From a virus: a stretch of 64,000 bases of DNA. The first letter of the stretch is position 1. Every line of letters starts with the position of its first letter. Location of the stretch: positions 1 through 64,000 of the IMG/VR virus record IMGVR_UViG_3300035698_026482, one strand, 5' to 3'. The notes under the pieces are model-generated. The model saw nothing but the letters and a program-made list of their open reading frames with translations, was not told where the DNA came from and did not search any database. The translations under genes and the position numbers were made by a program. This document shows, piece after piece, positions 1,958-64,000 of the stretch.

Positions 1958-2113
1958 CTAGAGTTTTGCAGAAATAAATGCATAAAGAGACGATGTAAAC
2001 CCAAGCCATTCAGCCATCTCGCAAGGCAAGTCTTCATCATATATTATAATACATTTATCGGGTTCTTGCGAATCATAGACTCGATGTGCGAACCATTGCG
2101 TTTTGTACTTCAT
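1958..2113 (-). CDS. Microprotein, FxS[AC] family (array C)
   Basis: 51 aa from MKYKTQWF; ends AFISAKL*; ATGA overlap. Confidence 0.75.
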   Translation of the reverse strand: MKYKTQWFAHRVYDSQEPDKCIIIYDEDLPCEMAEWLGFTSSLYAFISAKL

Positions 2114-2283: not shown

Positions 2284-2285
2284 GT

Positions 2286-2489
2286 TCAACGCTGCGTGAT
2301 CTGATGTATTGGCGCTGAAGAGAATTCAAGATGTGTCGATGAGCCTGTCCTGTAACTGCAGCTCACATAGTAATATAGTAACAGTGAACTTTTACCTGGC
2401 CAAACGTTAGTGGCCCATGTTTTCTTTGCCATACGTTCGTTCCCAGGGCACGAAGACAAAATATCATATATGTGAATATCTCTATTCAT
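2286..2489 (-). CDS. Microprotein, FxS[AC] family (array C)
   Basis: 67 aa from MNRDIHIY, overlapping the endonuclease stop; ends EFSSAPIHQITQR*. Confidence 0.7.
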   Translation of the reverse strand: MNRDIHIYDILSSCPGNERMAKKTWATNVWPGKSSLLLYYYVSCSYRTGSSTHLEFSSAPIHQITQR

Positions 2490-3525
2490 ACACGCCTGCT
2501 TTGAGCTCGCCGATGAAGTGAACACCGGGTGTGGGATTCGAGATGATGTCGTAGAGTTTACCCACGCATTCGCCCCTGAATCTACCGCGCTGCAGCCATT
2601 GATCGTATGAAATGCGAATTAGGCAATACCCTAACCGTGGTAATGTCACGTTTAGTTCATGATCTTTTAATTGATTCTTTTCTAGCTTTTGATTTTTGAA
2701 TATGGCTTTAAAATGATGTTGGCCGTCATATTCAATAACAATTTTTAATTGTTCGCTACAAATGTCAAAATAGCGACGTTGTGAACTGACTGATTTAAAC
2801 GATGCATGCTTTTTTCGCACATTAAGCCGAAAATCAGCCGCATCAATTAGCGCATTAACTAAACGATGCAATTCAATTTGAGGTTTTGATGTATGCACAC
2901 CCGTTTTCTGCATTGCATCAATGCATTTAGCAAATTCTTCTGGATTCTCTTCACGCCAACGCTTAAGATTCGTCGACCGTTGAGCTTGAATTTCTGGCCG
3001 CATTGATGTAATTTTTGCGACCCTAGAACTACGTTGGCGCGCTGTATCAGTTTGGTTAAGTTCACCTAACAATTTGGATCGGCGATCTCGTTCGTCGGGA
3101 TTCGACATAATCGCATCAGATACTGTCTGACCCATCTTTACGCGATATTCTGTTAAATCATCGCCATTTGCTTTGGCTCGATTAATCCAGTCGCTATTAT
3201 ATTTGTTTTGTTCGCTGTATCGCTCTGTAGTTGCAGCACACTTTATTGGACCATAGGCTTCAATATACTCATCTTTTGCAAGTCCATGTTCACGTTTAAC
3301 ATGCGCTGTCAGGCTTTTTGCGGCGAGATTACAAATTGCGCAGCGCACAAAATCAACGCCTTCAATGCGTCCCTTGAACTTGCATTTCGGTTCATGCGTC
3401 CTTAGCGCGCCTAGGACGTTGTATTGCTTTCCGCAATGCTGACAACATCCAGGTCTTGACGGACGATCTTCCTGATCGGAAGCATTTGTCCGCATGTCGT
3501 TCTGAACTTGTGATTCGGTGTGCAT
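2482..3525 (-). CDS. Zinc-finger plus Vsr/DUF559-like putative homing endonuclease
   Basis: N-terminal CxxC..H zinc fingers; C-terminal FDI...KIVIEYDGQHHF...GYCLIRISY. Follows an IntN-bearing dnaE fragment. The start may be ATG 3495. Confidence 0.75.
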   Translation of the reverse strand: MHTESQVQNDMRTNASDQEDRPSRPGCCQHCGKQYNVLGALRTHEPKCKFKGRIEGVDFVRCAICNLAAKSLTAHVKREHGLAKDEYIEAYGPIKCAATTERYSEQNKYNSDWINRAKANGDDLTEYRVKMGQTVSDAIMSNPDERDRRSKLLGELNQTDTARQRSSRVAKITSMRPEIQAQRSTNLKRWREENPEEFAKCIDAMQKTGVHTSKPQIELHRLVNALIDAADFRLNVRKKHASFKSVSSQRRYFDICSEQLKIVIEYDGQHHFKAIFKNQKLEKNQLKDHELNVTLPRLGYCLIRISYDQWLQRGRFRGECVGKLYDIISNPTPGVHFIGELKAGVYE

Positions 3526-11894: not shown

Positions 11895-11930
11895 TCTGGC
11901 GCCTCCTTCTTTTTGCTTAATTTGTTCATA

Positions 11931-12227
11931 TTAGTTCAATTTGCCTTGTTGAAATGCATTAACCCACGCGTAAATTGTCGGGGCATGGCAGCCAAATTCT
12001 TTTGCTAGCGTCGTTGCCGATTCACCAGCGAGTTTTCGTGTAGCCGCAACGACTTTCATATCATTCGTAAATTTTCGTTTTTGTTTAGACCTAGGAACAA
12101 GATCTGCGACCCACTTATGAACTACGGTCGGATTAACGTTTAAAATTTCGCCAACCTTATATGTGCTGTGATGCAGCTCATATAATATTCTCGCTGCTTT
12201 TTTGGTTCGGGCAGTATGACGCCTCAT
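11931..12227 (-). CDS. Tandem helix-turn-helix protein (IS3 OrfA-like HTH repeats), probable regulator
   Basis: KVGEILNVNPTVVHKWV and TLAKEFGCHAPTIYAWV. Confidence 0.7.
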   Translation of the reverse strand: MRRHTARTKKAARILYELHHSTYKVGEILNVNPTVVHKWVADLVPRSKQKRKFTNDMKVVAATRKLAGESATTLAKEFGCHAPTIYAWVNAFQQGKLN

Positions 12228-12409
12228 AATGTCTTATTATACATCACCCTTCGTGAGGAGAACACGCTTTTATTGCGAATCCTTTTTTTGTCTCCGTAAA
12301 GATCACGAGTCCAGCGACGCCAAGACCGGGCAAATTCATATGTCCACGCGGAAGAAAACCCGTACAGCCTGTGCTCTTGCAAAAAATTGTCTGCGGGCAG
12401 GATCCTCAT
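12224..12409 (-). CDS. FSSR-motif microprotein (array A)
   Basis: 61 aa from MRILPADNFL; ends VFSSRRVMYNKTL*; ATGA overlaps at both ends. Confidence 0.8.
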   Translation of the reverse strand: MRILPADNFLQEHRLYGFSSAWTYEFARSWRRWTRDLYGDKKRIRNKSVFSSRRVMYNKTL

Positions 12410-12601
12410 CTGCTTATCCTACGTGAGGAGAACACATGGCTTGTACCCTCGTGGGTTGGATCACCGTAATAATCATTCGTCTTCCAGGCCCATACAAGTT
12501 GACGATCGGGGGGGGAGGTAGCCTCGACGGTGGTTTACTGCCCTGCTGCTATCAATATAAAGGATAAGGTCGCCTAGGAACCATTTCATTGCACGTGTCA
12601 T
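12406..12601 (-). pseudogene. FSSR-motif microprotein frameshifted at a C8 run (array A)
   Basis: Removing one G from G8 at 12508-12515 gives MTRAMKWFLGDLIL...HVFSSRRISR*, with an ATGA overlap into 12409. Confidence 0.75.
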
Positions 12602-12762
12602 GCGCTCACCTTTCGTGAAGACCATTGATTGACTTGATGGGCCGGGGTCGAGCCCATTGTTTTCATCGTCGTGCTCATCCAATAACGTTGCGCTTGATTA
12701 CCCATATAGTTTAAGAGATACATGTCATCACATCGCCATGGCAATTTTTCAACAACCCACAT
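12598..12762 (-). CDS. FSSR-motif microprotein, WSSRK variant (array A)
   Basis: 54 aa from MWVVEKLPWRCDDMYLL; ends QWSSRKVSA*. Confidence 0.8.
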   Translation of the reverse strand: MWVVEKLPWRCDDMYLLNYMGNQAQRYWMSTTMKTMGSTPAHQVNQWSSRKVSA

Positions 12763-12968
12763 TAGCTGCTCACCTTGCGTGATGAGAACATCATGCTGGC
12801 GTAGCTGCAGATCCATGAATAGGGTGAACAAAATGACTCACGCGACCAACCAAGATCCTCTGGGGACGAGCTCGGCTCATCATTTTTTGTGCACCAAGTA
12901 TATGCTTGCGGCTTGAAAAAATCGTCACGAAGCAACTGATCGTATCCGTTCAGCCAAGTTGTTTTCAT
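12762..12968 (-). CDS. FSSR-motif microprotein (array A)
   Basis: 68 aa from MKTTWLNGYDQLL; ends MFSSRKVSS*. Confidence 0.8.
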   Translation of the reverse strand: MKTTWLNGYDQLLRDDFFKPQAYTWCTKNDEPSSSPEDLGWSRESFCSPYSWICSYASMMFSSRKVSS

Positions 12969-13129
12969 ACATTTACCTTGCGTGAAGACCATTGATAGGC
13001 CCGATGGGCCGGGGTCGAGCCCATTGTTTTCAGCACGTTGCTCATCCAATAACGTTGTATTTCATTGCCCATATTACGCAAAAGATACATGTCATCAGGT
13101 CGCCTCGGAAATCCCACAACGGCCCACAT
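12965..13129 (-). CDS. FSSR-motif microprotein, WSSRK variant (array A); paralog of 12598-12762
   Basis: 54 aa from MWAVVGFPRRPDDMYLL; ends QWSSRKVNV*. Confidence 0.8.
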   Translation of the reverse strand: MWAVVGFPRRPDDMYLLRNMGNEIQRYWMSNVLKTMGSTPAHRAYQWSSRKVNV

Positions 13130-13416
13130 TAGTTGGCCACCTTCCGCGATGAGAATATTGAAATACAAAAGGCGCCGCCCGGCATGCCTCTATCAACGCA
13201 ATAAGGCATGCCGCCGCCGGCGTGTTTGGATGAGGCTGTTTCATATTTTGATGCCTTGCATGTATATCTTAAATTCGTGATTATGTAAGAACCGCCCATG
13301 CGATTCTCATGATACTGGAAATATGAATCGTCTACTGCAATGCATGCATATAGATCAGGCCAATGAACATACGGCCAATGTTTTATTTGCCTTGGCGCTG
13401 GATTTACGACCTTCAT
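13129..13416 (-). CDS. FSSR-motif microprotein (array A)
   Basis: 95 aa; ends IFSSRKVAN*; TAATG overlap. Confidence 0.8.
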   Translation of the reverse strand: MKVVNPAPRQIKHWPYVHWPDLYACIAVDDSYFQYHENRMGGSYIITNLRYTCKASKYETASSKHAGGGMPYCVDRGMPGGAFCISIFSSRKVAN

Positions 13417-13637
13417 CTATTCACCCTGCGGCTTGAAAATATAAGCGCCTCTATATGCCCATCATGTAGTGGCGCCGTGTATGTGCATTTATCGTTAAAC
13501 TGCCATCCGCATTGCTTTGCAGTCTGTGTTTTATTATCGAAGTCCCATATACACGCTTGCTGACTTGACAGATGAATTGGTATGTCTAGTGAATAGGGCC
13601 ACCCGCGCAAGAGAATATCACCCGATAACAGTTTCAT
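13413..13637 (-). CDS. FSSR-motif microprotein (array A)
   Basis: 74 aa from MKLLSGDILL; ends IFSSRRVNR*. Confidence 0.8.
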   Translation of the reverse strand: MKLLSGDILLRGWPYSLDIPIHLSSQQACIWDFDNKTQTAKQCGWQFNDKCTYTAPLHDGHIEALIFSSRRVNR

Positions 13638-13837
13638 GTGCTCACCTTCCTGGACGAGAAGATAAGATATTTGTGATACTGTAATCTGTACGCTGCTGCT
13701 TTCGTCGAAGCCGCTTTTGCCTGGGTGGGACTCATTTTTCCTACATCAATATAGTATGCGCGGCGACGGCGGCGGCTGTATATCCACTTGTCATATTGCC
13801 ATTTTTCAATTAGCGCATCCTGAATTTTGTATTTCAT
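13634..13837 (-). CDS. FSSR-motif microprotein (array A)
   Basis: 67 aa from MKYKIQDALI; ends IFSSRKVST*. Confidence 0.8.
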   Translation of the reverse strand: MKYKIQDALIEKWQYDKWIYSRRRRRAYYIDVGKMSPTQAKAASTKAAAYRLQYHKYLIFSSRKVST

Positions 13838-14073
13838 ACATTCACCTTTCGTGAGGAGAAAATGATCATACGTCCATATGGATGGTAATTCGTTGCATCT
13901 AACGACCACGGCGGCAAAATATGATACATTTTATCTGTACTTGTTGGCCAGAATTGATGATCTCCCGCGAGCATATTCATACATTCACCTTTCGTGAGGA
14001 GAAAATGATCATACGTCCATATGGATGGTAATTCGTTGCATCTAACGAGCCCGGCGTCAAAATATGATACATT
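13833..14073. repeat. Near-identical direct repeat of about 98 bp, period 143 bp
   Basis: ttcatacattcacctttcgtgaggagaaaatgatcatacgtccatatggatggtaattcgttgcatctaacga occurs at 13833 and 13976. Confidence 0.95.
13834..13980 (-). CDS. FSSR-motif microprotein (array A; below ORF-track cutoff)
   Basis: 48 aa: MNMLAGDHQFWPTSTDKMYHILPPWSLDATNYHPYGRMIIFSSRKVNV*. Confidence 0.8.
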   Translation of the reverse strand: MNMLAGDHQFWPTSTDKMYHILPPWSLDATNYHPYGRMIIFSSRKVNV

Positions 14074-14117
14074 TCAAACATTTTCAATACCATGTGATCG
14101 TCTAGCTTGAGTTTCAT
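13977..14117 (-). CDS. FSSR-motif microprotein (array A; below ORF-track cutoff)
   Basis: 46 aa: MKLKLDDHMVLKMFEMYHILTPGSLDATNYHPYGRMIIFSSRKVNV*. Confidence 0.8.
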   Translation of the reverse strand: MKLKLDDHMVLKMFEMYHILTPGSLDATNYHPYGRMIIFSSRKVNV

Positions 14118-14335
14118 ATTGTCACCTTGCGTGAAGAAAATGCCCAGGCAATAGTTTCCCCTGCGAAGTCGTTATCATGATTAAGATACGTGGTCTCGTA
14201 AGCAACATGTTCCTCGCCGCGCGAAAGCTTATAGCCTATGCGACGACCGTGCTGCCCGGTCTGACCGTGCATGACAACTGCCTCTACGCGGATTGAATTA
14301 AAAACAACAGCTAAGTCATCGTGATATGCAATCAT
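14114..14335 (-). CDS. FSSR-motif microprotein (array A)
   Basis: 73 aa from MIAYHDDLAV; ends AFSSRKVTI*. Confidence 0.8.
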   Translation of the reverse strand: MIAYHDDLAVVFNSIRVEAVVMHGQTGQHGRRIGYKLSRGEEHVAYETTYLNHDNDFAGETIAWAFSSRKVTI

Positions 14336-14550
14336 CGTGCTACACGCCTTGAAGAAAATGCAGTAATATGCTGATCAGTAACACCCCATCTAATCAGATT
14401 CTTAGTTATGACTAAAGGTAACGACGATGTTTTGGCGCCCGATTTAAATTCTGTAGGATGCTGCCCAAAAAATGCGATTTTTGAATCAGCAATATGAAGT
14501 CTTAAGAAGAAATCACCTTCATGCCAGCGAAATTTAATTTGAGGAACCAT
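14332..14550 (-). CDS. FSSR-motif microprotein (array A)
   Basis: 72 aa containing WHEGDFFL; ends AFSSRRVAR*. Confidence 0.8.
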   Translation of the reverse strand: MVPQIKFRWHEGDFFLRLHIADSKIAFFGQHPTEFKSGAKTSSLPLVITKNLIRWGVTDQHITAFSSRRVAR

Positions 14551-14800
14551 TACCTAGCGATCTGCTTGAAAATACAAGCACTTCATCGATGCTCGGACAG
14601 CCGAATGTCGTGAAATCATTTTGCGGGGACCAAGTGCAATAATTGCACCAGCGCCAGCCGCGTGATTCGGGTGTCACGTAACGATCGCCCATATCAAGCC
14701 ATAATGACGCCGCGCCATACCAGCGTGATTCAAGCGCTTCGGGATTATCGTGTATGTTGCCCTGTATGAGCATGTCGTTGAGCATAATTTTCATCTCCAT
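14534..14800 (-). CDS. FSSR-motif microprotein (array A)
   Basis: 88 aa containing MLNDMLI; ends VFSSRSLGNGSSN*. Confidence 0.8.
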   Translation of the reverse strand: MEMKIMLNDMLIQGNIHDNPEALESRWYGAASLWLDMGDRYVTPESRGWRWCNYCTWSPQNDFTTFGCPSIDEVLVFSSRSLGNGSSN

Positions 14801-14801
14801 A

Positions 14802-14996
14802 CTAAGCGCGCACCTTCCTTGAGGAAAATGTAATGTTGTTTTCTGAATACTTTGAGCCTATCCAGAAAATTGTCGCCATGTGATGTGTCGACGATCCAGG
14901 TGGCGCTGCCCAATGCGTTGGATGCTGTATATACGAATCCTTGTGATTAACGAGCACGTAATCTCCTCGAGCTAAATGCGAAATTGAAATCGTCAA
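14802..14996 (-). CDS. FSSR-motif microprotein (array A)
   Basis: Ends TFSSRKVRA*. The start is either TTG 14996 or GTG 14957, the latter preceded by GAGGAG. Confidence 0.75.
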   Translation of the reverse strand: MTISISHLARGDYVLVNHKDSYIQHPTHWAAPPGSSTHHMATIFWIGSKYSENNITFSSRKVRA

Positions 14997-15180
14997 GGCT
15001 TAAGCAACATCTCCATTCGGCAGTCGCACATTGACTCCAGCCATTGCTTACAGGTGTACTTGGCGTCAACCATTGACAAGGTGTTGCTTCCACGTCGGTC
15101 CATTTATTTGGATAATAATGTAGATTATACATTAGAATATTATCTCCCAAGGCAATAAACGAGACATATCGGCGCTTCAT
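14947..15180 (-). CDS. FSSR-motif microprotein (array A)
   Basis: 77 aa containing IALGDNIL; ends AFSSRRLRAR*. Confidence 0.8.
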   Translation of the reverse strand: MKRRYVSFIALGDNILMYNLHYYPNKWTDVEATPCQWLTPSTPVSNGWSQCATAEWRCCLSLDDFNFAFSSRRLRAR

Positions 15181-15402
15181 CGTGCCACCGACCTCGATGA
15201 AAATTGCCAACAAACATATTCGCTAAAATAAAAAAGCTCTTTGTCATCGTATTTGTGTCCGTATACGATTATGCCTCGAGAAGGACGATTCAAGGCGTCA
15301 AGATGATCACCTCGCATACTTGTGGTGTAACATCGTTTCACATCATCAGTCGCTATCGCATGATCAGTCGCCTATCGCATGATCATTTTGATATACAATC
15401 AT
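15177..15402 (-). pseudogene. FSSR-motif microprotein disrupted by a 19-bp tandem duplication (array A)
   Basis: Removing GATCATGCGATAGGCGACT restores MIVYQNDHAIATDDV...CWQFSSRSVAR*, with ATGA overlaps at both ends. Confidence 0.75.
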
Positions 15403-15590
15403 CCTGTGATTTTCCGTGAGCTAAAAATAATAGAATCACCAATAAAAGCATTGGTATAATGCCGCATGGGGGTGTAGTAAATCGCTACGATCTCGCCGGT
15501 ACGATGAAAACACATATCAACGGTATCATCAGCGTTAACGCGCCGCATAGCAACGTTAACATCAATTGCAGCGCGCCATAACATGTTCAT
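15399..15590 (-). CDS. FSSR-motif microprotein (first gene of array A)
   Basis: Ends IFSSRKITG*; the start may be the second ATG at 15584. Confidence 0.8.
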   Translation of the reverse strand: MNMLWRAAIDVNVAMRRVNADDTVDMCFHRTGEIVAIYYTPMRHYTNAFIGDSIIFSSRKITG

Positions 15591-46984: not shown

Positions 46985-47875
46985 TTATGCGTCAGGCCAA
47001 AAAAACGTGGTCCCGATAGGGACCTCTACCTCGTTTGTCTCTCCGCAGGCGCCACATGTAAAGTCAGCTTTCATGTCGATGCCTGGTTGATACTGTTCAA
47101 TGTGATTTCGCAAGACGCGTGAGTCGCGGACAGGCATATTATTGATGAACTTAGTAATATACATCCTGTCAGTTTTGCCGTCGACTGACACAATCAAGCG
47201 TGCCAACTGAGAGGTTATAATATTATCAACAGCGGTCTGCAACTTCTTTTTGCGTTGTTCTGCGTCACGCGACAGCTCTTCTTCATCTCGACCAGTAAGA
47301 AAGCGAAACTGGATTCTCTTCTTTGATACTGGTAGATCAAGTGAGAATAGATTTTCGCCAGGAGCTTCTGGCGTAAGTTCGAGCCATTTGATCGGTAGTT
47401 CATTCAAATCGAATTCGCTCGTCTCACGGTTGTTACAATCTGGACACCCAACTTCAATCGCGTACTCGGCGCCGTAACCTGTAATTCGAAGTGCCACCAT
47501 TAATGCGTTACGATCGGCAAGTAGAAGATCATTTGGATTGATTTTCTTATTGCTTAAGCATGATCGCAAAAGATGAGTAATAACAGTACCCTTTTTAATC
47601 AGGGCTCTTGACGTAAGGATATCTTCATCCTTGGCTGTCATTGCCCTAATTTCAAGACCTTCGCAGTTGTGCAAAAGGCTGTCGGCGCCGTATACAAAGC
47701 CTCTGGAGGGTAGTGGCACAACATCGATAGGAATCTCATATCCAAAATCATCGCCGCTGGGCGTGCCTGCATGCATTCCTGGGATGTTTGTTGGTGGTGT
47801 ATGTTGCTGCTCTTGTCCTGGGGGTGGTGTCCCGCCCTGGAAAACCTTATTAGCGCCGCGTGTATCACTAGTCAT
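46985..47875 (-). CDS. Tail or baseplate assembly chaperone (T4 gp26/gp51-like)
   Basis: LPSRG..Y, IRAMTAKDEDIL, LRITGYG, CPDC and CGAC zinc motifs, FFWP end. Confidence 0.75.
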   Translation of the reverse strand: MTSDTRGANKVFQGGTPPPGQEQQHTPPTNIPGMHAGTPSGDDFGYEIPIDVVPLPSRGFVYGADSLLHNCEGLEIRAMTAKDEDILTSRALIKKGTVITHLLRSCLSNKKINPNDLLLADRNALMVALRITGYGAEYAIEVGCPDCNNRETSEFDLNELPIKWLELTPEAPGENLFSLDLPVSKKRIQFRFLTGRDEEELSRDAEQRKKKLQTAVDNIITSQLARLIVSVDGKTDRMYITKFINNMPVRDSRVLRNHIEQYQPGIDMKADFTCGACGETNEVEVPIGTTFFWPDA

Positions 47876-49741: not shown

Positions 49742-50689
49742 CTAGGGAACGTTGGGACTGGGCAGGTTATTGCACGCAGTATCAATAACCATTAACGCAT
49801 CTTCGAAAAACTGCTCATATGATGGTGCGCAGATGTCGCCGATAAACCCGTTTGTGAACATATTCGTGAACTGTGTAAGAATAGGCGCTTGTGCCATCCA
49901 CGTATTTTCACAGTCTGGCGAATCAGGTACACTGATTAACGACAAAATGACAACATTCTTTTCATCTTGTTCTAGATACAACATATGCTCAAACGAAATT
50001 GCGGCATTTTGCTGTGATGCAGCATCCTCATCGGTAATAATAACCACTACGAGTAATGCATCATCGCGATTAAAGCCTTCATTACATTGACCTGGTGAAT
50101 TTAAGAAGCCCTCTAGCGCTGCAATCGTTGCAGAAATAGGCTCTTCAAGACCACTGCCTGTGGCACCCACATTCGCTGCACATGTAAACGCAGAACTAAT
50201 ATCATCATCCTGCGTCATGTAATTATTACCTGCGACATATGGACCACATGTCGAGGTGCTTGTTGTTGTTACTAATGCACCAAGCTTTTGACATGGTCCA
50301 GGATTATCATCAAAATCGTCTGTGGTGACAACTCCAAGATGAATGCTTTCGAGTTCGACGATATAATTTTCAATCTGATTTGCAAATGCCGGAAATGACT
50401 CAATGAGCTTTTGTTGATTATCAAACATGGATCCAGAATTGTCGATCACAAAAAGAAAATCAACGTTCTTGCACGTTAATAGATTCCCGTCTGGATCAAC
50501 ATTCATGCCACCCGATCCATCGATATCAAGCTTGTCAGCAGGCGCATCGCCGCTTTCGCTTGCTTCGCTTCCAGACATAACATCTGGTTGTTTGCCAACG
50601 CTTAATGCAAATTCGGCATCGTTTGGATTACATGCAAGTGACAATGTAGCAATAATACCAAGCAACGCCGTTTTTAATTTTCTTATCAT
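49742..50689 (-). CDS. vWA-domain lipoprotein of the type common in myxobacteria
   Basis: Lipobox LSLA|C; VDFLFVIDNSGSM (MIDAS DxSxS), LGVVTTDD, GFNRDDALLVVVIITDED. Confidence 0.7.
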   Translation of the reverse strand: MIRKLKTALLGIIATLSLACNPNDAEFALSVGKQPDVMSGSEASESGDAPADKLDIDGSGGMNVDPDGNLLTCKNVDFLFVIDNSGSMFDNQQKLIESFPAFANQIENYIVELESIHLGVVTTDDFDDNPGPCQKLGALVTTTSTSTCGPYVAGNNYMTQDDDISSAFTCAANVGATGSGLEEPISATIAALEGFLNSPGQCNEGFNRDDALLVVVIITDEDAASQQNAAISFEHMLYLEQDEKNVVILSLISVPDSPDCENTWMAQAPILTQFTNMFTNGFIGDICAPSYEQFFEDALMVIDTACNNLPSPNVP

Positions 50690-50891: not shown

Positions 50892-51077
50892 TTAAAGCTT
50901 ACGACTAGAAAATATCTGTTGACTTCCAAGTAACATACTTCGTAGTTTTTTATCATACCTGATATGGGGTGCAGCAAAATAGTCCGTGTATATAAGCTGA
51001 CCCTTTAATTTGTCAAGGAAGTAGCGAGAAAAATACATATCGTCTGGGCGAATATAGCTGCTAAATTGAGATGTCAT
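50892..51077 (-). CDS. FSSR-motif microprotein (array B)
   Basis: 61 aa containing IRPDDMYF; ends IFSSRKL*. Confidence 0.8.
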   Translation of the reverse strand: MTSQFSSYIRPDDMYFSRYFLDKLKGQLIYTDYFAAPHIRYDKKLRSMLLGSQQIFSSRKL

Positions 51078-51078
51078 G

Positions 51079-51282
51079 TTATATTTTTCTGCTTGAAAAG
51101 CATGTTTCGCCGCTGTACCATGCATCGCCAAATGTTTCTCGCAAAAATTGACCTGGAAACATAACACGAAAATAGCAAAGGTTAAGCAGTGAACCAAACT
51201 CACCGCGCAAGGAACCGCTATGTTCATTAGAATAAATGTATAAATCGCCCGTAACAACAGGGATTTTGTTATGATTTATCAT
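51079..51282 (-). CDS. FSSR-motif microprotein (array B)
   Basis: 67 aa containing VVTGDLYI; ends CFSSRKI*. Confidence 0.8.
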   Translation of the reverse strand: MINHNKIPVVTGDLYIYSNEHSGSLRGEFGSLLNLCYFRVMFPGQFLRETFGDAWYSGETCFSSRKI

Positions 51283-51541
51283 TTGGCGGACTGGTAAGCA
51301 TTTCAACTAATGCATAAACTGCTTCCTCATTATGTTTAATTAATTCTGTTCTAAGATCGATTTCTGCCCTAATAACATCTCGCGGCGGCTCAGCAGCGAT
51401 TTCATACTGATAAGCTTGTTCGTTCATGCGATGAATAATATGTCTAAGCTTGGCTGTACGAACTAGTTCCCACTCCCACGTTGCGCGACGCCCATGATGA
51501 CTAATATATTTCACCCACGTATATTTTTCTGTTTTTATCAT
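51269..51541 (-). CDS. Hypothetical protein inside array B that lacks the motif
   Basis: 90-aa ORF. Confidence 0.65.
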   Translation of the reverse strand: MIKTEKYTWVKYISHHGRRATWEWELVRTAKLRHIIHRMNEQAYQYEIAAEPPRDVIRAEIDLRTELIKHNEEAVYALVEMLTSPPNDKS

Positions 51542-51544
51542 TTG

Positions 51545-51712
51545 CTAAATCTTTCTTGAGATAAATCTGCGCCATAATGAATAGCCAACATCTGCATAGC
51601 TTAAAATCGTGTTCGGTGGGGCGGTTCTAAATTCAATCTCATGATGCTTCTGTTCATTATAAAACGGCAAGAAAAAGTAGAAATAATGATCTGCAGGCCT
51701 AATTTTCATCAT
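51545..51712 (-). CDS. FSSR-like microprotein, FISRK variant (array B; below ORF-track cutoff)
   Basis: 55 aa: MMKIRPADHYFY...LWRRFISRKI*. Confidence 0.75.
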   Translation of the reverse strand: MMKIRPADHYFYFFLPFYNEQKHHEIEFRTAPPNTILSYADVGYSLWRRFISRKI

Positions 51713-51900
51713 GTGCGCCTTGAACTAAAAATCCATTTGCGCAACATCATTCCGTCAGATGCCAGGTTTTCACCATAACTCGCTCCCTGTGACATAATAT
51801 CGCCGAAATAAGCTTCATCACGCATGTATGAAACATGCATTCCGCTCGTCTGTATCCAATGTATCAAAAAGAAACATGCATCGTTTTTATATGGCCTCAT
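51709..51900 (-). CDS. FSSR-motif microprotein (array B)
   Basis: 63 aa from MRPYKNDACFF; ends IFSSRRT*. Confidence 0.8.
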   Translation of the reverse strand: MRPYKNDACFFLIHWIQTSGMHVSYMRDEAYFGDIMSQGASYGENLASDGMMLRKWIFSSRRT

Positions 51901-52106
51901 ATCGCTAGTTTTCTTGAGCTAAAAACGTACCCAACTGAGAAGAGGTCGTATTTGCAGGCGCCCGTATAGTAGTATGTTCGGTATCTTGCAATTACGTTAT
52001 CAAGTATATCTTGGTAAAAGATAGCGTCATCATAATCCATCCATTCTCTTAGCGACATGTTTCGTTTTGGATTGAGAAGCTGTTTGTATAATTCATTCGC
52101 GCTCAT
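51897..52106 (-). CDS. FSSR-motif microprotein (array B)
   Basis: 69 aa; ends VFSSRKLAI*. Confidence 0.8.
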   Translation of the reverse strand: MSANELYKQLLNPKRNMSLREWMDYDDAIFYQDILDNVIARYRTYYYTGACKYDLFSVGYVFSSRKLAI

Positions 52107-52275
52107 AAATTCGTCTTGATGAAAACACGTCAGATGATATTAGCGTCGACAAATCAGCCCATTGGGTAACATTGCCAGCAGTCCACGTGCGGCGGATTCC
52201 GCCAATATAATCAATTCCCGCTGCAAGCATCACGAAATCGTTATGCTTAATCAATGTGTAATTCATTTGCATCAT
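52093..52275 (-). CDS. FSSR-motif microprotein (array B)
   Basis: 60 aa containing IKHNDFVM; ends VFSSRRIYERE*. Confidence 0.8.
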   Translation of the reverse strand: MMQMNYTLIKHNDFVMLAAGIDYIGGIRRTWTAGNVTQWADLSTLISSDVFSSRRIYERE

Positions 52276-52499
52276 CTATTCACCCTTCGTGATGAGAAAT
52301 AATATGCCACTAATTCATGATATCCCGTACGCAAGACAAAATTAGTACCGTATTTATATTCGTACAGTAGCGGCGCATCACCAAAAAAAGCAATCGCGTC
52401 ATCGTCGGATATCAATTTTTCGACACGACATTTTTCACAGCCACGAGTCATTATTCCTGACATTACATGGATTGAATAGTCATCCTTGTATGCAATCAT
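52272..52499 (-). CDS. FSSR-motif microprotein (array B)
   Basis: 75 aa from MIAYKDDYSI; ends YFSSRRVNR*. Confidence 0.8.
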   Translation of the reverse strand: MIAYKDDYSIHVMSGIMTRGCEKCRVEKLISDDDAIAFFGDAPLLYEYKYGTNFVLRTGYHELVAYYFSSRRVNR

Positions 52500-52702
52500 T
52501 ATTCGGCTTTTGTTATTATTTTTCGTGACGAGAAAACGTCAAGCATGTGCTCATACGTCCGTAGTCCGAACTTGCCTACGTAATCAGCCTGGAAATAATC
52601 GATAACTGTTCCGACAAAGTAATTGTCGGGATCTGTTACGTCAAGCTTTTCATTGCCATGAAAATAGATGTACAAATCATTAAGTTCTACGGGTACCCGC
52701 AT
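52499..52702 (-). CDS. FSSR-motif microprotein (array B)
   Basis: 67 aa from MRVPVELNDLYI; ends VFSSRKIITKAE*. Confidence 0.8.
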   Translation of the reverse strand: MRVPVELNDLYIYFHGNEKLDVTDPDNYFVGTVIDYFQADYVGKFGLRTYEHMLDVFSSRKIITKAE

Positions 52703-52874
52703 TTGATACCCTTCGCGATGAGAAAACGTAGCAGTAATTGTTGTGTGCATAATGTGATGCGGATCTAGCGGATCTCGTGTATGTTATATGGGTGGTATAT
52801 ACGTTGCACACGTCAGCGAACTGTGGAGGGCTATACCGATACACACACGCTTTATCGCCAGTTCTGGAATTCAT
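52680..52874 (-). CDS. FSSR-motif microprotein (array B)
   Basis: 64 aa from MNSRTGDKAC; ends VFSSRRVSNAGTRRT*. Confidence 0.78.
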   Translation of the reverse strand: MNSRTGDKACVYRYSPPQFADVCNVYTTHITYTRSARSASHYAHNNYCYVFSSRRVSNAGTRRT

Positions 52875-53086
52875 GTTGTGCTAATCTTTCGTGACGAGAA
52901 AGTTTCAATGTGAAAACCCGAAGGCGTCCAGGCACTTAATTGTGGATTGCGTAAGGTCATCGAGTCCTTTGTTAACGGATAATATGAATACCTTGTCCTG
53001 CCGGGTCTTGATGGACATCGCCAGTAGACGATTATTCCATACGTCGGGGTAACCCTGAACACGTGATCAAGTGACGTTGACAGCAT
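52871..53086 (-). CDS. FSSR-motif microprotein (array B)
   Basis: 71 aa containing SLDHVF; ends TFSSRKISTT*. Confidence 0.8.
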   Translation of the reverse strand: MLSTSLDHVFRVTPTYGIIVYWRCPSRPGRTRYSYYPLTKDSMTLRNPQLSAWTPSGFHIETFSSRKISTT

Positions 53087-53088
53087 TG

Positions 53089-53277
53089 TTATCTATTCGC
53101 TTTCCGTGATGAGAAAATATATTCGTCCGTGTACGAACGTTGAACGCTGCGGGACGTAGCATATGCGATATAAGCACCACCGTTCAGCGTGGTAGCAATT
53201 GAACGATCAAGTACACGGAAATTTGAATCTTCGCGTGACCAGGCTATAAAATAGTGATCGTCGAAAACTATAGGCAT
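53089..53277 (-). CDS. FSSR-motif microprotein (array B)
   Basis: 62 aa from MPIVFDDHYF; ends IFSSRKANR*. Confidence 0.8.
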   Translation of the reverse strand: MPIVFDDHYFIAWSREDSNFRVLDRSIATTLNGGAYIAYATSRSVQRSYTDEYIFSSRKANR

Positions 53278-54869
53278 GCATTCCCTTGTAATTCGAATCG
53301 TGCATTAGGACAGCCATAAATTTTAACAAGACCTCGAGCTGCGGCAACAGCCGCTTGCGACAATCCTTGTGTCTTATCTGCAGTAACGTATAATCGCGGA
53401 TATCTGTTTACAAAATCTGTCCACCAAAATCTAGAGCTTGTTAGACCGGTGTAGGTAAATCCAATATTACTATACCCGACACCTAAGCCTATTCGACGAT
53501 CTGCATAAGTCATAATAGATTTTGTATTATCGATATCGTTTCTTGCGTGCTTTAAAAGCTTTGACAATCCGCCGATAACGTATAGATTAAGTGACGTAGC
53601 ATATCGCGCTATTTCCAAGAAATTCTTTTTGTGCGTCTTTGAAATCGGTGTTCGTAACGAAAGCGCAGCAACAATTTCATTGTCATGAATTAAGGCATAT
53701 GCAGCCTTCGCGTTTCCAGTATCACCATCTAAGTGCGTCGAATTAAAAAATGTCTGGCGTTGGGCGCGCGTAAGTTTCTCGATTCGACATTTTCGTGCAT
53801 AAATTTTTGTGCAATCAACCTTTAGACGATTTCTGATCATCGATTTAACAATCTGTTGTTTGTCACGCCACTCGTCTTCAAAGATATGAAACAGGGGTAA
53901 GTCAATTGCTTCACACAACTGCGTTTTATCCCAATGCGCATCATTATTCGTTAATATTTCTTCAGAATGCCAATATAACCCATTAAATTCAATTGCTAAC
54001 GTATTCGGCACAAGTATATCGATTTCTTTAGGTGCTATTGTATTTCTATCGTTTAATATAGCGTCAGGCCTGAGGGCTTTTACGAAGTCATATACTTCCC
54101 TCTCTGATTTCCACTTTGGCATGCATGAAGGGCAATACTGGCGCCGAAGCATGTATTTGTATGTCCGCTCAAATGTTGTATCACATGTCGTGCATTTAAA
54201 TGTCGCTCGTGAATTCACGCCTGCGTATTCGTCAATTGACGAATATAATTCGAATCCTTTCATTTCAGCACATCGTTCAGCAACGACGTTTTTATCAAGC
54301 ATTTGCGACGCGCTTATTTTCGCTGCGCCAATGATCAGTCCGGGTGTATCGTCTTTTGTCTTATTACGATTCCACGGGACAGTTGTTCCATCAGCAAAAT
54401 TAGCCAGTTTTGTTTCTGACATTTGCTTTATTGATGCGCTCGTATCTTTTGTTAGTCCATTTTGCCATGGAACTAGTCTGCCTTCTGCGTATCCGCGCTG
54501 CAATGTCTCTGCAGTTTTCTTTGCGATGGCCCTAACTCTGCTATCTTGCTTTGTTAAACCCTTATTCCACGAGCCATGTATTTTACGATGCTTTGCCGAT
54601 GCTAGCGTCGCTGCTTTTCGAGCCTTGTCGCTGAATCCATTATGACCAACAACAAACTTTGAAAATGCACGATTATCATCTGTCCAGCGTTGTGCCAATG
54701 ATACAGTTTCGCCGCAGCCGCATGAACATGTGGGAACCTCACCATTATGCAACATATCTGCGAAAATTTTCGACCTAGATACATCGCGATGCGCTTTCGT
54801 GATATGACAGGCCATACCGCGCCGCGTTTTTACGATTGCGCAAATAGGGCACTTGTAATCGACTGGCAT
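53268..54869 (-). CDS. Putative homing endonuclease (same family as 5625-7247), inserted in array B
   Basis: CPIC..H, CSCGCG, WNKGLTK repeats, DRNTIAPKEIDI...AIEFNGLYWHS, YARKC, EIARY. Confidence 0.75.
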   Translation of the reverse strand: MPVDYKCPICAIVKTRRGMACHITKAHRDVSRSKIFADMLHNGEVPTCSCGCGETVSLAQRWTDDNRAFSKFVVGHNGFSDKARKAATLASAKHRKIHGSWNKGLTKQDSRVRAIAKKTAETLQRGYAEGRLVPWQNGLTKDTSASIKQMSETKLANFADGTTVPWNRNKTKDDTPGLIIGAAKISASQMLDKNVVAERCAEMKGFELYSSIDEYAGVNSRATFKCTTCDTTFERTYKYMLRRQYCPSCMPKWKSEREVYDFVKALRPDAILNDRNTIAPKEIDILVPNTLAIEFNGLYWHSEEILTNNDAHWDKTQLCEAIDLPLFHIFEDEWRDKQQIVKSMIRNRLKVDCTKIYARKCRIEKLTRAQRQTFFNSTHLDGDTGNAKAAYALIHDNEIVAALSLRTPISKTHKKNFLEIARYATSLNLYVIGGLSKLLKHARNDIDNTKSIMTYADRRIGLGVGYSNIGFTYTGLTSSRFWWTDFVNRYPRLYVTADKTQGLSQAAVAAARGLVKIYGCPNARFELQGNACL

Positions 54870-54894
54870 CTTACATATTATACATATGTTAGAT
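54868..54894 (-). promoter_or_regulatory. Hairpin overlapping the endonuclease start codon, containing TATAAT
   Basis: ATCTAACATAT-GTATA-ATATGTAAGAT|G, an 11-bp stem with 1 mismatch. Confidence 0.6.
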
Positions 54895-54917
54895 CAATAT
54901 GTTTGGTCCAGCCTGCA

Positions 54918-55151
54918 CTATTGTTTAGCAATGCCGAGACGACGGGATGAGAAAACATCGTATTCCCAATATCCCAGTATGCCTCCCGATGTTGAATATT
55001 CATGCGCGGTTGGCCACGTATCAATGAAATGGTCAAGTGGGAGGGCCCAGTGGTTATAATTCGTTAATATTAACATCCTGGATTGTGCCCAATCAGATAA
55101 AGTCACGTCGTCGAGGGCACCAATATGCGTTGCATTCTGCTTTAGTATCAT
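54918..55151 (-). CDS. FSSR-motif microprotein (first gene of array B)
   Basis: 77 aa from MILKQNA; ends VFSSRRLGIAKQ*; starts just downstream of the tube-gene terminator. Confidence 0.75.
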   Translation of the reverse strand: MILKQNATHIGALDDVTLSDWAQSRMLILTNYNHWALPLDHFIDTWPTAHEYSTSGGILGYWEYDVFSSRRLGIAKQ

Positions 55152-55163: not shown

Positions 55164-55205
55164 GACAAAAGAAATCCCCTTACACTGTATTACAGCGAAG
55201 GGGAT
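55164..55205 (-). terminator. Rho-independent terminator after the tail tube gene
   Basis: ATCCCCTT-CGCTGT-AAT-ACAGTG-T-AAGGGGAT followed by TTCTTTTG. Confidence 0.75.
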
Positions 55206-55225
55206 AATGTTCAGTCTTGATACTG

Positions 55226-55245
55226 CAGCCACTTATAAGTGGCTG
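55226..55245. repeat. Perfect 20-bp palindrome
   Basis: CAGCCACTTATAAGTGGCTG, just past the tube stop codon. Confidence 0.9.
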
Positions 55246-55254: not shown

Positions 55255-55743
55255 TTAGTACTGCTGGATGGCGTTGTCAAAGCGTAGGGTCAAGGCGATT
55301 TCACAGGCGTCTGGGGCGCTGTAGTCAAGGTCATTGAAGTTTGCGTCCGTGATGAACACACCTTTCAGATCCCATAGCTGCACAACAGTACCGATAGGGT
55401 CAAGCATCTTAATCTGGCAATCACGCTTGTAAAAATCGGCGTAGCCAGCGCGCCCCGAAACAGACTCATGGTGAACGCGAATCCACTCCATGACCTGTTG
55501 CGCGCCAGACGGTGCGATCGGATCATAAAGAGTAACCGACATTGGTTGAAACTCGTTCTTACCTGCAAGGTAACGAATGCTATTAAGCCAATCTATTTTC
55601 ACTTCGCCTTGAGCCATTTGCGGGCGCGCAGCTGTCTTCATAAGATATGCGTCAATACCTTCAATGTTAAAAAGCCATCGATGTTTGCGCAGTGGCTCAA
55701 ACCGATTGGGGATCATCGTTGCGACATCTAATGTTTCTGCCAT
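55255..55743 (-). CDS. Tail tube protein (T4 gp19-like)
   Basis: MAETL..FEP.RKHRW, LYDPIAPSGAQQVMEWIR, GYADFYKRD, WDLKG.F...F..LDY, LTLRFD. Confidence 0.88.
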   Translation of the reverse strand: MAETLDVATMIPNRFEPLRKHRWLFNIEGIDAYLMKTAARPQMAQGEVKIDWLNSIRYLAGKNEFQPMSVTLYDPIAPSGAQQVMEWIRVHHESVSGRAGYADFYKRDCQIKMLDPIGTVVQLWDLKGVFITDANFNDLDYSAPDACEIALTLRFDNAIQQY

Positions 55744-55791
55744 GATGCATATAACTATTAAATCACCGCAACTCTCAAAGTACAATTTGTT

Positions 55792-55820
55792 GCATAAGCT
55801 ATATATTATAGTTAGTATGC
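55792..55820 (+). promoter_or_regulatory. Hairpin covering the start codon of the plus-strand endonuclease, with an ATAGTTAG motif
   Basis: GCATA-AGCTATA-TAT-TATAGTT-AG-TATGC; ATG at 55817. Confidence 0.6.
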
Positions 55821-57442
55821 GCTCAAGTGGCACGAAAAATAATATAGCTGTTTGCCCGTTCTGCGAGTACTCATCAGGTCTATTATCGAAGTTCGAACAA
55901 CATTTATCTCGTGAACATGACACGTCATCAAAGGAATGTTGGGATCAACAAAACGGCGGGCCGGTCAAATGTGGATGTGGGTGTGACAAAGAAACAAAAT
56001 GGTTAAACTGGCACAAGGGATATTCAGAATCTTTTAAGGGTCACTGGAAGCGTGGCAAAACAAAAGAAAGTGATGCGCGTGTTGCTAGCGCCGCTGCGGG
56101 TATCAAAAAAGGCTTTGATGAAGGTAGGATTCCGTGGTCAAAGGGACTAACCAAGAAAACAGATGATCGTATTGCGAAAATGGCAAAGGCGACCAGCGAT
56201 GGTCTTAAGCGTGCATACGCAACAAAACGTCTAAAATCATGGTCAAAGGGTAAGTCTAGGGGCACACACCCCAGTCTGCAAAAAACCTCTACGACCCTAA
56301 GAAAAACATATGCAAATGGAGATCGTGTGCCTTGGGCAAAGGGTCTAACAAAAGATACAGACGATAGGATCGCAGCTCTCGCATCAAGAAACAGGCTTGA
56401 CATTGATAATATTAAGCAACGCATTGAGACGCCAGGTCTATATCAGCTATTAACAAAGCTTGATGATTATGAATCAACGTCAGACATTGTAGACATAATT
56501 TGTACAACGTGTAATTCGGTCGCGTCGAATAAAATTGGTGTGTTCATTCATGGAAATTCGCAACCAAATTGTCAAACGTGTGCACCAACAGGATCATCTA
56601 TTCCTGAACGTGAGCTAGCTGACTTTATCGAATTCGAATTGGGCGTGTCAATTTCTAGAAATGATCAGACCGTTATTAATCCCTACGAACTAGATGTGTA
56701 TGTGTCACAAAGTAACTTCGCCATTGAGTTCAACGGACTATATTGGCATAATTCAGCAAATAAACCAAGCAAAACGACGCATTCGCATAAGACAAAGCTT
56801 TGTAATCTTAGGGGAATAAAGCTGTTACACGTATTCGGTGATGAGTGGCGAGATCGTACAGAAATTGTTAAGTCTATTATTCGTGCAAAATTAGGTGCAG
56901 GCATGTCGCGCATCGACGCAAGAAAGTGTGTAATTCGCGATGTTATGTTACCCGAGCGTAGGGTGTTCTTTAACGATAATCATATTGACGGCGATACCAA
57001 TGCATCATTTGCGCTTGGTCTTTATCACGGTGATGTACTTGTACAATGTATTTCTATTCGCCGACCCATGCAACAAAAATATAGAACAGCGAAGCTACTT
57101 GAAAACGCCCGCAGTTGCTCTATACTGAACACATATGTTCGAGGGGGATTAAGCCGTTTAAGCAAAGTCGCATTGACTCGCGCCAAGGGTATGGGATACA
57201 GCGGACTTATGACCTATACCGACGAACGTCTAGGTAATGATATGGCGTATCAAAGTTCAGGATGGCAGTATACCGATAGAACTAACGATGTACGTTTCTG
57301 GTGGACAGACAATACACGTAGATATCAACGTATGCAATTTAAGGCTGATAAAAAAAGAGGCCTCTCTGAACGTCAAGTTGCAGAAGAGGCCGGTGTTGTG
57401 AAGATCTACGGTTGTTATAACAAGATCTATGTGATTAGATAA
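55817..57442 (+). CDS. Putative homing endonuclease (same family as 5625-7247), divergent from the tube gene
   Basis: CPFC..H, CGCGC, PWSKGLTK repeats, DQTVINPYELDV...AIEFNGLYWH, DARKC, ENARSC. Confidence 0.75.
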   Translation: MRSSGTKNNIAVCPFCEYSSGLLSKFEQHLSREHDTSSKECWDQQNGGPVKCGCGCDKETKWLNWHKGYSESFKGHWKRGKTKESDARVASAAAGIKKGFDEGRIPWSKGLTKKTDDRIAKMAKATSDGLKRAYATKRLKSWSKGKSRGTHPSLQKTSTTLRKTYANGDRVPWAKGLTKDTDDRIAALASRNRLDIDNIKQRIETPGLYQLLTKLDDYESTSDIVDIICTTCNSVASNKIGVFIHGNSQPNCQTCAPTGSSIPERELADFIEFELGVSISRNDQTVINPYELDVYVSQSNFAIEFNGLYWHNSANKPSKTTHSHKTKLCNLRGIKLLHVFGDEWRDRTEIVKSIIRAKLGAGMSRIDARKCVIRDVMLPERRVFFNDNHIDGDTNASFALGLYHGDVLVQCISIRRPMQQKYRTAKLLENARSCSILNTYVRGGLSRLSKVALTRAKGMGYSGLMTYTDERLGNDMAYQSSGWQYTDRTNDVRFWWTDNTRRYQRMQFKADKKRGLSERQVAEEAGVVKIYGCYNKIYVIR

Positions 57443-62376: not shown

Positions 62377-64000
62377 CTAGCTTAATCCGCCCTGGTTGGT
62401 AATTACGAAATCGAGATCAATGAATTCTGCGACCTTCGTAGGCTTGAGGAAGATTTTTCCTCTAATCGTATTATTTTCAATGTCTGCTTGACTGGTTGTC
62501 GTTGCGTCGATAATCACGCGGAATCCGTCGAGACCCTGTTGTTCTTGAACGCGTTGCAGAATTGGGTTTACCAACGCAGAGAATCGACGAAGCGTTTCTT
62601 CACGATTTGGCTCGAATAGGATGCTATTTGAAACTGTGCGCACTTCACGGCGAATTTCAATAAGCAAGCGGCGAACATTGATTCGATCAAGTGAGCTTTG
62701 CGCACGCTTGAGCGTCTTTTGTCCCCATGTTACAATGCCTTCCGATCCTGGAAAGCTAACGATTGGGTTAATATCAACGTCATATAGATCGTCCATATTC
62801 GCACGTGAAAGCTTGACTGCTGTATCAACAGTAGTTTCAAGCACGCCACGTTTATAACCGGCAGGTGCAAACCATGGACGGGCCACGGAGTCGTTCAATG
62901 ACATGGCACCAAGTGCAACAACCGAAGGTGGTACACGGGTCTCTAGACCATTGAATGGATCGATCATTACAACGTCCGGGTAGTACGCGGCTGCAAAGCT
63001 CGAATCAAGTGCGCGAGCCGAGAAAGCATTTGCTGTATTACCAACAGATTGTGGCTGATCAGCCGAGCTCGTGACAACATTGTTGAGGGAATCTCTTTCC
63101 TCAATATCCATGATTGCCAATGCATCAAATCGTGTTTCTGTCGTATTGATCAATTGATCAGTGATGATTTCATGACGCATACCTGGGATTGCAAGAAGCT
63201 TAACATCAACTTCTGTCGTATTACCCATCAGATCAAGGGCCTTAGTATATGCCTTAACAGTTGGGCCTTCGTTCTGGCCGCGGGCAACATATGTCATCTC
63301 CTCATTAACGGCCTTGTCATTCATTGCGGTGGCGTCAGTATCAAAGATATTAACACCATCATATCCGCCTTGAAGAAAGAATGAGAACTTGACAACATTC
63401 TTAACTGCTAGCGAAGCAAGGTCTGTATCTGCTACAAGCGCCCTTGTTTTATTTGCTGCGTTGCTAACAATGCCACCTGCACGTTGATAAGTCCAATCCG
63501 CAAGATACTTTGTTGATGCGAGACCGTCTGTACCTGTAACAACCTGAATGTTTTCAAGCGAAAAGAGATTGTTGTTATACCTGTCTGCGTCGATAATTCC
63601 GTTTGCGGCTGTATCTAGTGCACCCTCGTTATCGCCAACAAGGAAATTCTGCCATGACGCTTGAAAGTCAGGATAGTATTGCGTGTATGTTCCAACTGTT
63701 GGTTCACTTCGCTTGCCAAGATTTGGTTCTGCTGTCGAAATTTGTGCCTCGAAATGTACGCCCCAATAGAAATCTTTATTGGAGTCTTTCTTTTGTCCCG
63801 TTCCAACCGCAATTGTACGTCTATACGGTACTGGAGGCTCTGCGATAGCGTTCAATACACCTGATGTTGCGGCAAGCGAATCTGCATCATTTGCAGACGT
63901 TGCAAGTGGTGCAGACCCAGATAGTGAAAGGTGGCGAGGGCCGCGAAATCCAATTGGAAGCGCGGTTGCATCAATTTCCTTATCATCGACTTCACTTGTA
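62377..64000 (-). CDS. Contractile tail sheath protein (N-terminus outside the window)
   Basis: LQGGYDG, LLAIPG, FAAAYYP, PWFAPAG..RG, INPI..FPG, WGQKTL, LDRINVRRLL, FEPN, EFIDLDF; the frame is open to the window edge. Confidence 0.93.
   Translation of the reverse strand, partial: TSEVDDKEIDATALPIGFRGPRHLSLSGSAPLATSANDADSLAATSGVLNAIAEPPVPYRRTIAVGTGQKKDSNKDFYWGVHFEAQISTAEPNLGKRSEPTVGTYTQYYPDFQASWQNFLVGDNEGALDTAANGIIDADRYNNNLFSLENIQVVTGTDGLASTKYLADWTYQRAGGIVSNAANKTRALVADTDLASLAVKNVVKFSFFLQGGYDGVNIFDTDATAMNDKAVNEEMTYVARGQNEGPTVKAYTKALDLMGNTTEVDVKLLAIPGMRHEIITDQLINTTETRFDALAIMDIEERDSLNNVVTSSADQPQSVGNTANAFSARALDSSFAAAYYPDVVMIDPFNGLETRVPPSVVALGAMSLNDSVARPWFAPAGYKRGVLETTVDTAVKLSRANMDDLYDVDINPIVSFPGSEGIVTWGQKTLKRAQSSLDRINVRRLLIEIRREVRTVSNSILFEPNREETLRRFSALVNPILQRVQEQQGLDGFRVIIDATTTSQADIENNTIRGKIFLKPTKVAEFIDLDFVITNQGGLS

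Follow-up and report, generated by a model that had tools for sequence, protein, structure and literature searches.

Tandem arrays of more than 30 similar genes have been described in the jumbo phages G and 121Q (Hua et al. 2017, PMC5646251). T4-type phages contain hyperplastic regions of variable small genes, with PeSL cassettes (Arbiol et al. 2010, PMC2839356; Comeau et al. 2014, PMC4122927). The internal proteins found in T-even phages form a highly diverse set and have a capsid targeting sequence in common (PMC3012670). In MuA, the degron for ClpX is formed by C-terminal basic residues followed by A-I (PMC8138137). Here we analyzed the first 64 kb (the window) of the 182,840-base IMG/VR virus record IMGVR_UViG_3300035698_026482, which is estimated to be 53% complete and comes from an uncultured, deep-branching T4-like myophage. 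The subject is array B, a row of small genes on the minus strand at 50892-55151; a second array with the same motif, array A, lies at 12224-15590.

Array B contains 12 open reading frames (ORFs) of 55-77 amino acids that end with F-[S/I]-S-R-[K/R]. These ORFs code for protein, and the motif is maintained at the amino-acid level. We believe, with a probability of roughly 55%, that they are 12 diverged paralogues of an orphan, expanded microprotein family (the FSSR family), with constant terminal strands and free centres, in which the ends close the fold or form a shared docking surface. The original prediction, made from the sequence letters, had placed 12 motif genes in this second array, which included an F-I-S-R-K variant and a motif-less gene at 51269. 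The ORF listing and the six-frame motif scan confirmed the count, and the variant and the motif-less gene are both present.

Gene content of array B and conservation of its motif

All genes of array B lie on the minus strand and are described here in their reading direction. B1 (54918-55151, 77 amino acids) starts at ATG 55151, and its ORF is open from GTG 55232. The codon model described below favours its own frame, its motif arginines are encoded by CGT CGT, and it has no Shine-Dalgarno (SD) sequence (free energy, dG, +1.5). B1 is followed after 48 nt by a homing-endonuclease gene (53268-54869, 533 amino acids), which separates it from the other motif genes. This gene matched phrog_3339 (E 2.7e-71) and the HNH endonuclease family phrog_559 (E 6.3e-62), in agreement with the original prediction that an endonuclease splits the array. 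The slot of array B has been invaded by a homing-endonuclease gene, whose stop overlaps the start of B2 by 10 nt.

B2 (53089-53277, 62 amino acids) has Asp at residues 6 and 7, and B3 (52871-53086, 71 amino acids) has Asp-7. B4 (52680-52874, 64 amino acids) also has Asp-7, and its 9-residue tail overlaps the start of B5 by 23 nt; the coding signal of this ORF is ambiguous, so that it may be decaying. B5 (52499-52702) has 67 amino acids from its second Met, at ATG 52702, which is preceded by an SD of dG -4.6; its ORF is open from 52750. B6 (52272-52499, 75 amino acids) has Asp at residues 6 and 7. It is followed by B7 (52093-52275, 60 amino acids), B8 (51897-52106, 69 amino acids) and B9 (51709-51900, 63 amino acids, Asp-7). 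B10 (51545-51712, 55 amino acids, Asp-8) carries the F-I-S-R-K variant. The motif-less gene, Bx (51269-51541, 90 amino acids), is an orphan for which the codon model also ranks its own frame best. B11 (51079-51306) has 75 amino acids from TTG 51306 or 67 from ATG 51282. The last motif gene, B12 (50892-51077, 61 amino acids), starts at 51077, which corrects the first reading, and the next gene is approximately 200 nt away. From the endonuclease gene to B12, all 12 junctions range from a 38-nt overlap to a 3-nt gap, and several are of the ATGA or TAATG type.

The motif occurs 31 times in the 183-kb record, and 29 of these copies are at most 12 amino acids from a stop. Shuffled sequences gave 1.9 +/- 1.2 matches, which corresponds to an enrichment of approximately 15-fold. 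With the long ORFs of this phage as its training set, a codon model ranked the annotated frame best in 12 of the 13 ORFs of array B. The motif codons were counted in 27 copies. Phe was encoded by TTT in 14 and TTC in 13, and Arg by all six of its codons. All six Ser codons, TCN and AGY, were used for the first Ser, with AGY in 6 of 26, near its share in the genome. Skewed codon use was limited to the second Ser (TCA in 18/27) and position 5 (AAG or AGG in 16/27). The array-B motif has hydrophobic neighbours on both sides: Phe is preceded by I or V in 8 of 12 genes, and R-[K/R] is followed by I, L or V in 10 of 12, with seven different codons in use at the latter position. The pattern [I/V]-F-S-S-R-[K/R]-[I/L/V], ending within 12 residues of the stop, describes 12 of the 13 array-B genes, one of which has Ile in place of the first Ser. 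The motif is separated from the stop by 1-9 residues. Because the synonymous codons vary and the flanking hydrophobic residues are kept, the motif is conserved as protein.

A second signal lies at the other end of the proteins. Asp stands exactly at residue 7 in 13 of 29 members (7/16 in array A, 5/12 in array B and one solo gene; binomial p 2e-8). It could be argued that the small ORFs are not genes and that the whole pattern is a chance or compositional artefact, since no homologues were found, the structure models are poor and one ORF lacks a coding signal. This reading is refuted by the enrichment of the motif, the fit of 12 of 13 ORFs to the in-frame codon model, the positional conservation of Asp-7, and the packing of the ORFs head to tail on one strand with overlapping stops and starts.

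Another explanation is that the motif is mainly a by-product of nucleic-acid constraint, in which the codons of R-[K/R]-V spell an SD, a spacer and the overlapping start of the next gene. The sequence upstream of each start was therefore paired with the anti-SD, and the duplex energies were compared for both arrays. The mean dG was -4.3 kcal/mol in array A, -3.2 kcal/mol for the long ORFs of the phage, -2.2 kcal/mol at random positions and -2.1 kcal/mol in array B. The well-paired joints of array A agree with the by-product explanation, as do the GTG codon after the motif in 11 of 18 array-A members, the skews at the second Ser and position 5, and three or four array-B junctions (before B5, B7, B10 and perhaps B3) with an SD in or beside the motif. 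However, array B as a whole pairs no better than random positions. A good SD inside the motif was found only before B5 and B7 (reaching -4.6), and array B as a set does not have motif codons that pair with the anti-SD at 5-10 nt from the start that follows. B1 and B12 retain the motif with no coupled gene downstream. The codons of Phe, the first Ser and Arg stay near genome frequency, including switches between TCN and AGY and between CGN and AGR, and the aliphatic residue after the motif is kept in spite of its varied codons. For array B, the by-product explanation is largely refuted, and we consider it very improbable for the motif in general. The motif of array A doubles as an SD; in array B it is kept without such pairing, and therefore dual coding holds for array A without accounting for the motif. 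This makes array B a natural control that separates the protein-level signal from the ribosome-binding-site signal by which array A is confounded.

Kinship of the arrays and predicted structure of the proteins

The alignment of 28 members contains an invariant N-terminal Asp column and an invariant S and R, with a mean column identity of 15%. When the motif was removed, significant pairwise BLAST matches were found only within array A (three recent duplicates), and the best pairs between arrays A and B had E values of 0.005-0.2 in a tiny database. A profile of array B without the motif scored a mean of 1.85 bits on array A, compared with -0.22 +/- 0.54 for shuffles, and none of 40 shuffles reached this value. 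The reverse test, with the array-A profile on array B, gave 0.99 against 0.33 +/- 0.38 (p 0.05). Since Asp-7 and the weak profile signal extend beyond the motif, the family link between the two arrays holds, and the homology between them on which the original prediction depended is not limited to the five motif residues.

The original prediction went further and proposed exchange between the distant arrays; we examined whether cassettes have moved by recombination at conserved joints, so that array B was built partly from genes of array A. The predicted identical 8-residue end of B6 (52272) and the gene at 13413 was found. It is encoded by the same final 15 nt, and B6 has 19-22-nt near-matches to three more array-A joints; it is the only member of array B with a joint of the array-A type. 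The first ten residues of B6 resemble the gene at 14114-14335, B12/A13 (z 5.9) and B6/A6 (z 5.6) are outlier pairs, and short conserved flanks are known to mediate gene shuffling in T4-type phages (PMC2839356). However, the shared 15 nt also encode the SD, the spacer and the ATGA overlap, and are thus fixed by these constraints as well. A local-alignment score of z near 6 is borderline among 406 pairs. The longest DNA matches between the arrays are 15-22 nt, and the best-scoring ones (E <= 0.05) are all at one joint (52272-52299), whereas duplicates inside array A span 99 nt at 97% and 83 nt at 88%. The mean local-alignment z between arrays A and B (0.26) equals that within array B (0.28). Because no long DNA tract is shared and similarity between the arrays is the same as within array B, old common descent is preferred over exchange, which we regard as improbable. 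The data point to arrays A and B being old, diverged branches of one family, with no sign of recent exchange.

The N-terminal strings that had been paired across the arrays do exist. They are instances of the family-wide Asp-7 signature and give no evidence of traffic. The third of them (M-I-V-Y-Q-N-D...) is present in array A as a 12-residue stub at 15402 and not as a full gene. This ORF (15364-15402, minus strand) has a typical family N-terminus, stops just upstream of the next array-A gene and looks like a frameshifted or truncated remnant. A third group, array C (840-2525, minus strand), consists of nine small ORFs ending with F-[S/V/I]-S-[A/C], several of which have the N-terminus Y-[N/D]-x-[I/V/M]-M-W. 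Array C abuts another endonuclease gene (2482-3525) and is likely a sister branch without the basic pair. In its R-[K/R] form, the motif has approximately 30 copies in the record; array C raises the count to approximately 40. Beyond the window, isolated small ORFs on the minus strand end with F-S-S-R-R (record position 151114), F-S-S-R-S (92816) and F-V-S-R-K (139354); these are possible stray members.

The family members are mostly basic and poor in Glu, Gly and Ala. Tyr accounts for 6.7% of their residues (2.9% in long ORFs) and Trp for 2.8% (1.2% in long ORFs). The centre of the proteins varies freely in sequence and length. AlphaFold models were examined for B2 (predicted local distance difference test score, pLDDT, 64.5; four strands) and B6 (pLDDT 54). 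Both are all-beta; in each, the first strand begins at residue 8, immediately behind Asp-7, and the final strand terminates either within the motif, as it does in B2, or shortly before it. According to these models, the products are probably all-beta, with a constant N-terminal strand, formed by Asp-7 and the hydrophobic residues after it, and a constant C-terminal strand carrying the motif. The idea that the N-terminus resembles the first strand in KOW/SH3-like barrels was unsupported by Foldseek and VIA-align searches. The match of one array-A member to Portal_T4 (15.5 bits over a basic stretch) was under the cut-off and was rejected.

Relatives were searched for in several collections. The 28-member profile, run against 1.84e9 representative proteins, found only B5 and A7 of the phage itself and one spurious repeat protein; the 83-residue form of B5 was the only match in array B. 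Only 2 of the 28 members passed the E-value threshold of this search, and because most of the phage's own members fail it too, the absence of relatives is weak evidence. A word-indexed search of 5.8e9 proteins returned only A1 of the phage itself. Searched with a degenerate DNA pattern of the joint, IMG/VR gave 57 single matches and metagenome contigs gave at least 120 stretches, with a single match per locus among the matches listed, and none of the loci fetched from either collection had two or more motif genes. In 80 related phages, the regions surrounding the tail-tube gene, approximately 1 Mb in total, had no FSSR genes, and megablast against GenBank phages gave no match. In Pfam, PHROGs and PDB, no family was matched by more than one member (best single E 0.007-0.08, below the cut-offs), and the PDB profile search with the family gave E >= 1.6. 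Bx had no Pfam match and no homologue, ESM Atlas gave no usable lead, and no relevant paper was retrieved when the literature was searched with the motif strings. Judged by these searches, the FSSR family appears only in this phage record among the collections covered.

Genome setting and transcription

Array B lies in a variable slot between the genes of the tail tube and the baseplate. The upstream neighbour is a gp19-like tail-tube gene (55255-55740, minus strand), which matched phrog_4542 (E 1.6e-26), while its Pfam match to PF06841 falls below the cut-off. This ORF is approximately 70% identical to its counterpart in hundreds of uncultured T4-like IMG/VR contigs. The ORF at 62377-63855 is a tail sheath, with at most 38% identity to any cultured phage, and a T4 baseplate protein (PF12322) is encoded at 46985-47875. 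With tube, sheath and baseplate ORFs on its flanks, array B is therefore inside the tail module, approximately 35 kb from array A, as had been predicted. Another endonuclease ORF (55664-57442, plus strand), on the far side of the tail-tube gene, is 35% identical to the one in array B over the full length of the latter. The two paralogues bracket the tail-tube gene, and each has a weak Mom-like match at its C-terminus. On the 3' side of array B, a gene of 315 amino acids (49742-50689, minus strand) is lipoprotein-like, with a signal peptide ending with L-A-C and a D-x-S-x-S motif, a metal site of the von Willebrand A type. The gene had no Pfam or PHROG match and no relative in IMG/VR or metagenome contigs. 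Among the flanking genes examined, no maturase, the adjacent enzyme used as the criterion for precursors of ribosomally synthesized and post-translationally modified peptides, was matched in Pfam or PHROGs.

Two hairpins (55164-55245, minus strand) follow the tail-tube stop (55255-55257). The segment folds at -41.1 kcal/mol, compared with -21.4 kcal/mol for shuffles (z -5.83). Because the second hairpin (55205-55174) precedes a U-rich tail (55173-55164), it looks like an intrinsic terminator, and the placement of array B behind a tail-tube terminator, as first noted, is borne out. Only 12 nt separate the U-rich tail from the ATG of B1. No terminator-like fold was found 3' of array B. The T4 late promoter TATAAATA occurred at chance level, and a TGTAAA-type promoter was absent near array B. 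Sigma-70-like matches numbered 35, against 23.5 +/- 5.2 in shuffles, and were not clearly enriched. Upstream of the endonuclease gene, 7 nt from its ATG, there is a TATAAT hexamer (54870-54895, minus strand). It could now drive B2-B12 too, because the stop of the endonuclease gene overlaps the start of B2. Because there is no promoter space between the terminator and B1, and none was recognised, array B is probably transcribed within the minus-strand structural transcripts. B1 would be reached through read-through of the terminator, and B2-B12 from the same transcript or from the TATAAT 5' of the endonuclease gene. Ribosomes may then pass from gene to gene along array B, since its 12 junctions are so tight.

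The slot after the tail tube was compared among 80 related T4-like loci. In the 13 longest, the tail tube is followed by 1-10 other ORFs. In 6 of the 80, the slot holds 4-7 small genes (approximately 60-170 amino acids) that share an N-terminal peptide unlike the FSSR motif. This peptide is a basic helix of the type M-K-I-T-K-R-Q-L-R-R-I-I-K-E-E, with an I-x-Glu site like those of the T4 prohead protease. The array on contig L032 lies at 10461-13419 (plus strand), and the others are on L034, L035, L037, L039 and L044. These tagged genes were unrecognised by Pfam and PHROGs, and copies of the helix motif, with its I-x-Glu site, are also present in the genome of the source phage. Arrays of end-tagged small proteins thus recur in the slot after the tail tube, and a targeting role for the FSSR ending is therefore still to be considered.

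Interpretation and comparison with known systems

We propose that the two constant ends of each protein meet, and that they would either close a small fold or form one shared docking surface. The centres may supply different specificities, so that the array would be a set of variant accessory proteins for host interaction. Several results weigh against this interpretation. The two AlphaFold models are of low confidence, and the contact between the ends is our own deduction. Foldseek searches of PDB and BFVD had no match below E 0.4, and the best exhaustive VIA-align score was Z 4.3. No orthologues were found in any of the protein sets, IMG/VR or the metagenome contigs searched, and no promoter was recognised for array B in the three promoter scans. 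B4 (52680-52874) is the sole exception to the codon model. A short linear motif near the terminus is as compatible with a signal for targeting or degradation as with a structural strand.

The last of these points leads to the strongest competing explanation, in which the ending serves as an address or handle, a short linear peptide by which approximately 40 microproteins would be directed to one partner, such as the prohead interior or a host AAA+ protease. The constant part is very short and terminal, the body is free in sequence and length, and three members of array B end one residue past the motif, giving the C-terminus R-K-[I/L]. This resembles the T-even internal proteins, in which the capsid targeting sequence is the sole common part of a diverse set (PMC3012670), and the basic run followed by A-I in the MuA degron (PMC8138137). 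Array B also sits among structural genes, in a slot that holds end-tagged small-gene arrays in related phages. However, the extreme C-terminus is not conserved, and a motif at variable spacing from the C-terminus is a poor candidate for a strict C-terminal degron. At the N-terminus, no T4-type cleavage site, (I/L)-x-Glu, is conserved, and a different N-terminal helix motif with an I-x-Glu site is present in the same genome. Array A is in the replication module and not the head module, and no partner gene adjoins. We tentatively prefer a fold clasp over a partner handle for the constant ends, and regard the handle as an alternative that is rather unlikely. A broader version, which we consider doubtful, is that the Asp-7 start and the FSSR end form a two-part handle for one machine of phage or host, serving, for example, particle loading or controlled turnover. 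The approximately 40 genes would then be a library of interchangeable cargoes or binders, the C-terminal counterpart of T4 capsid targeting, and would belong to a broader class of fixed-end microprotein libraries of large phages that has not been described. If a common partner uses the ends as a handle, the family would amount to a natural system of scaffold plus variable body, and a route to the role of such arrays in phage-host conflict. If they are a fold clasp only, the family would be an ordinary, though extreme, paralogue expansion.

An expansion of paralogues, the interpretation that we favour, invites comparison with the arrays of phages G and 121Q (PMC5646251). In both cases, kilobases of a large phage genome are given to head-to-tail copies of a small gene, which has been explained in G and 121Q by tandem duplication. 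The copies in G and 121Q are very similar, whereas the members of array B are near the noise level and keep only their two ends. Unlike those arrays, the FSSR family is spread over two or three arrays in different modules. Array B also resembles the hyperplastic regions of T4-type phages (PMC2839356; PMC4122927), in that small lineage-specific genes lie between T4-like core genes and related phages fill the slot differently. PeSL cassettes consist of conserved promoter and stem-loop DNA between genes. Array B has no such DNA: its genes overlap or are at most 3 nt apart, no DNA repeat between arrays A and B exceeds 22 nt, and the conserved part is protein sequence.

The internal proteins of T4 are likewise diverse small proteins of a T4-like phage that are united by a short terminal peptide. 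Their signal is N-terminal (approximately 10 residues) and is removed at (I/L)-x-Glu, whereas the stronger signal of the FSSR family is C-terminal, its N-termini are of the form M-x5-D, and it has no conserved Glu site. A degron of the MuA type stands at the extreme C-terminus, and apart from the three members noted above, those of array B end 3-9 residues past the motif. The twelve tight junctions of array B are like those of coupled overlapping phage genes (ATGA/TAATG) and of array A, with the difference that the array-A motif doubles as a good SD and the array-B motif does not. Expanded small-gene arrays and the variable regions of T4-type phages are already known, and array B is not a new kind of system. 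Large phages devote a notable share of their genomes to expanded families of tiny genes that databases do not recognise, and array B shows one such family to be protein-coding.

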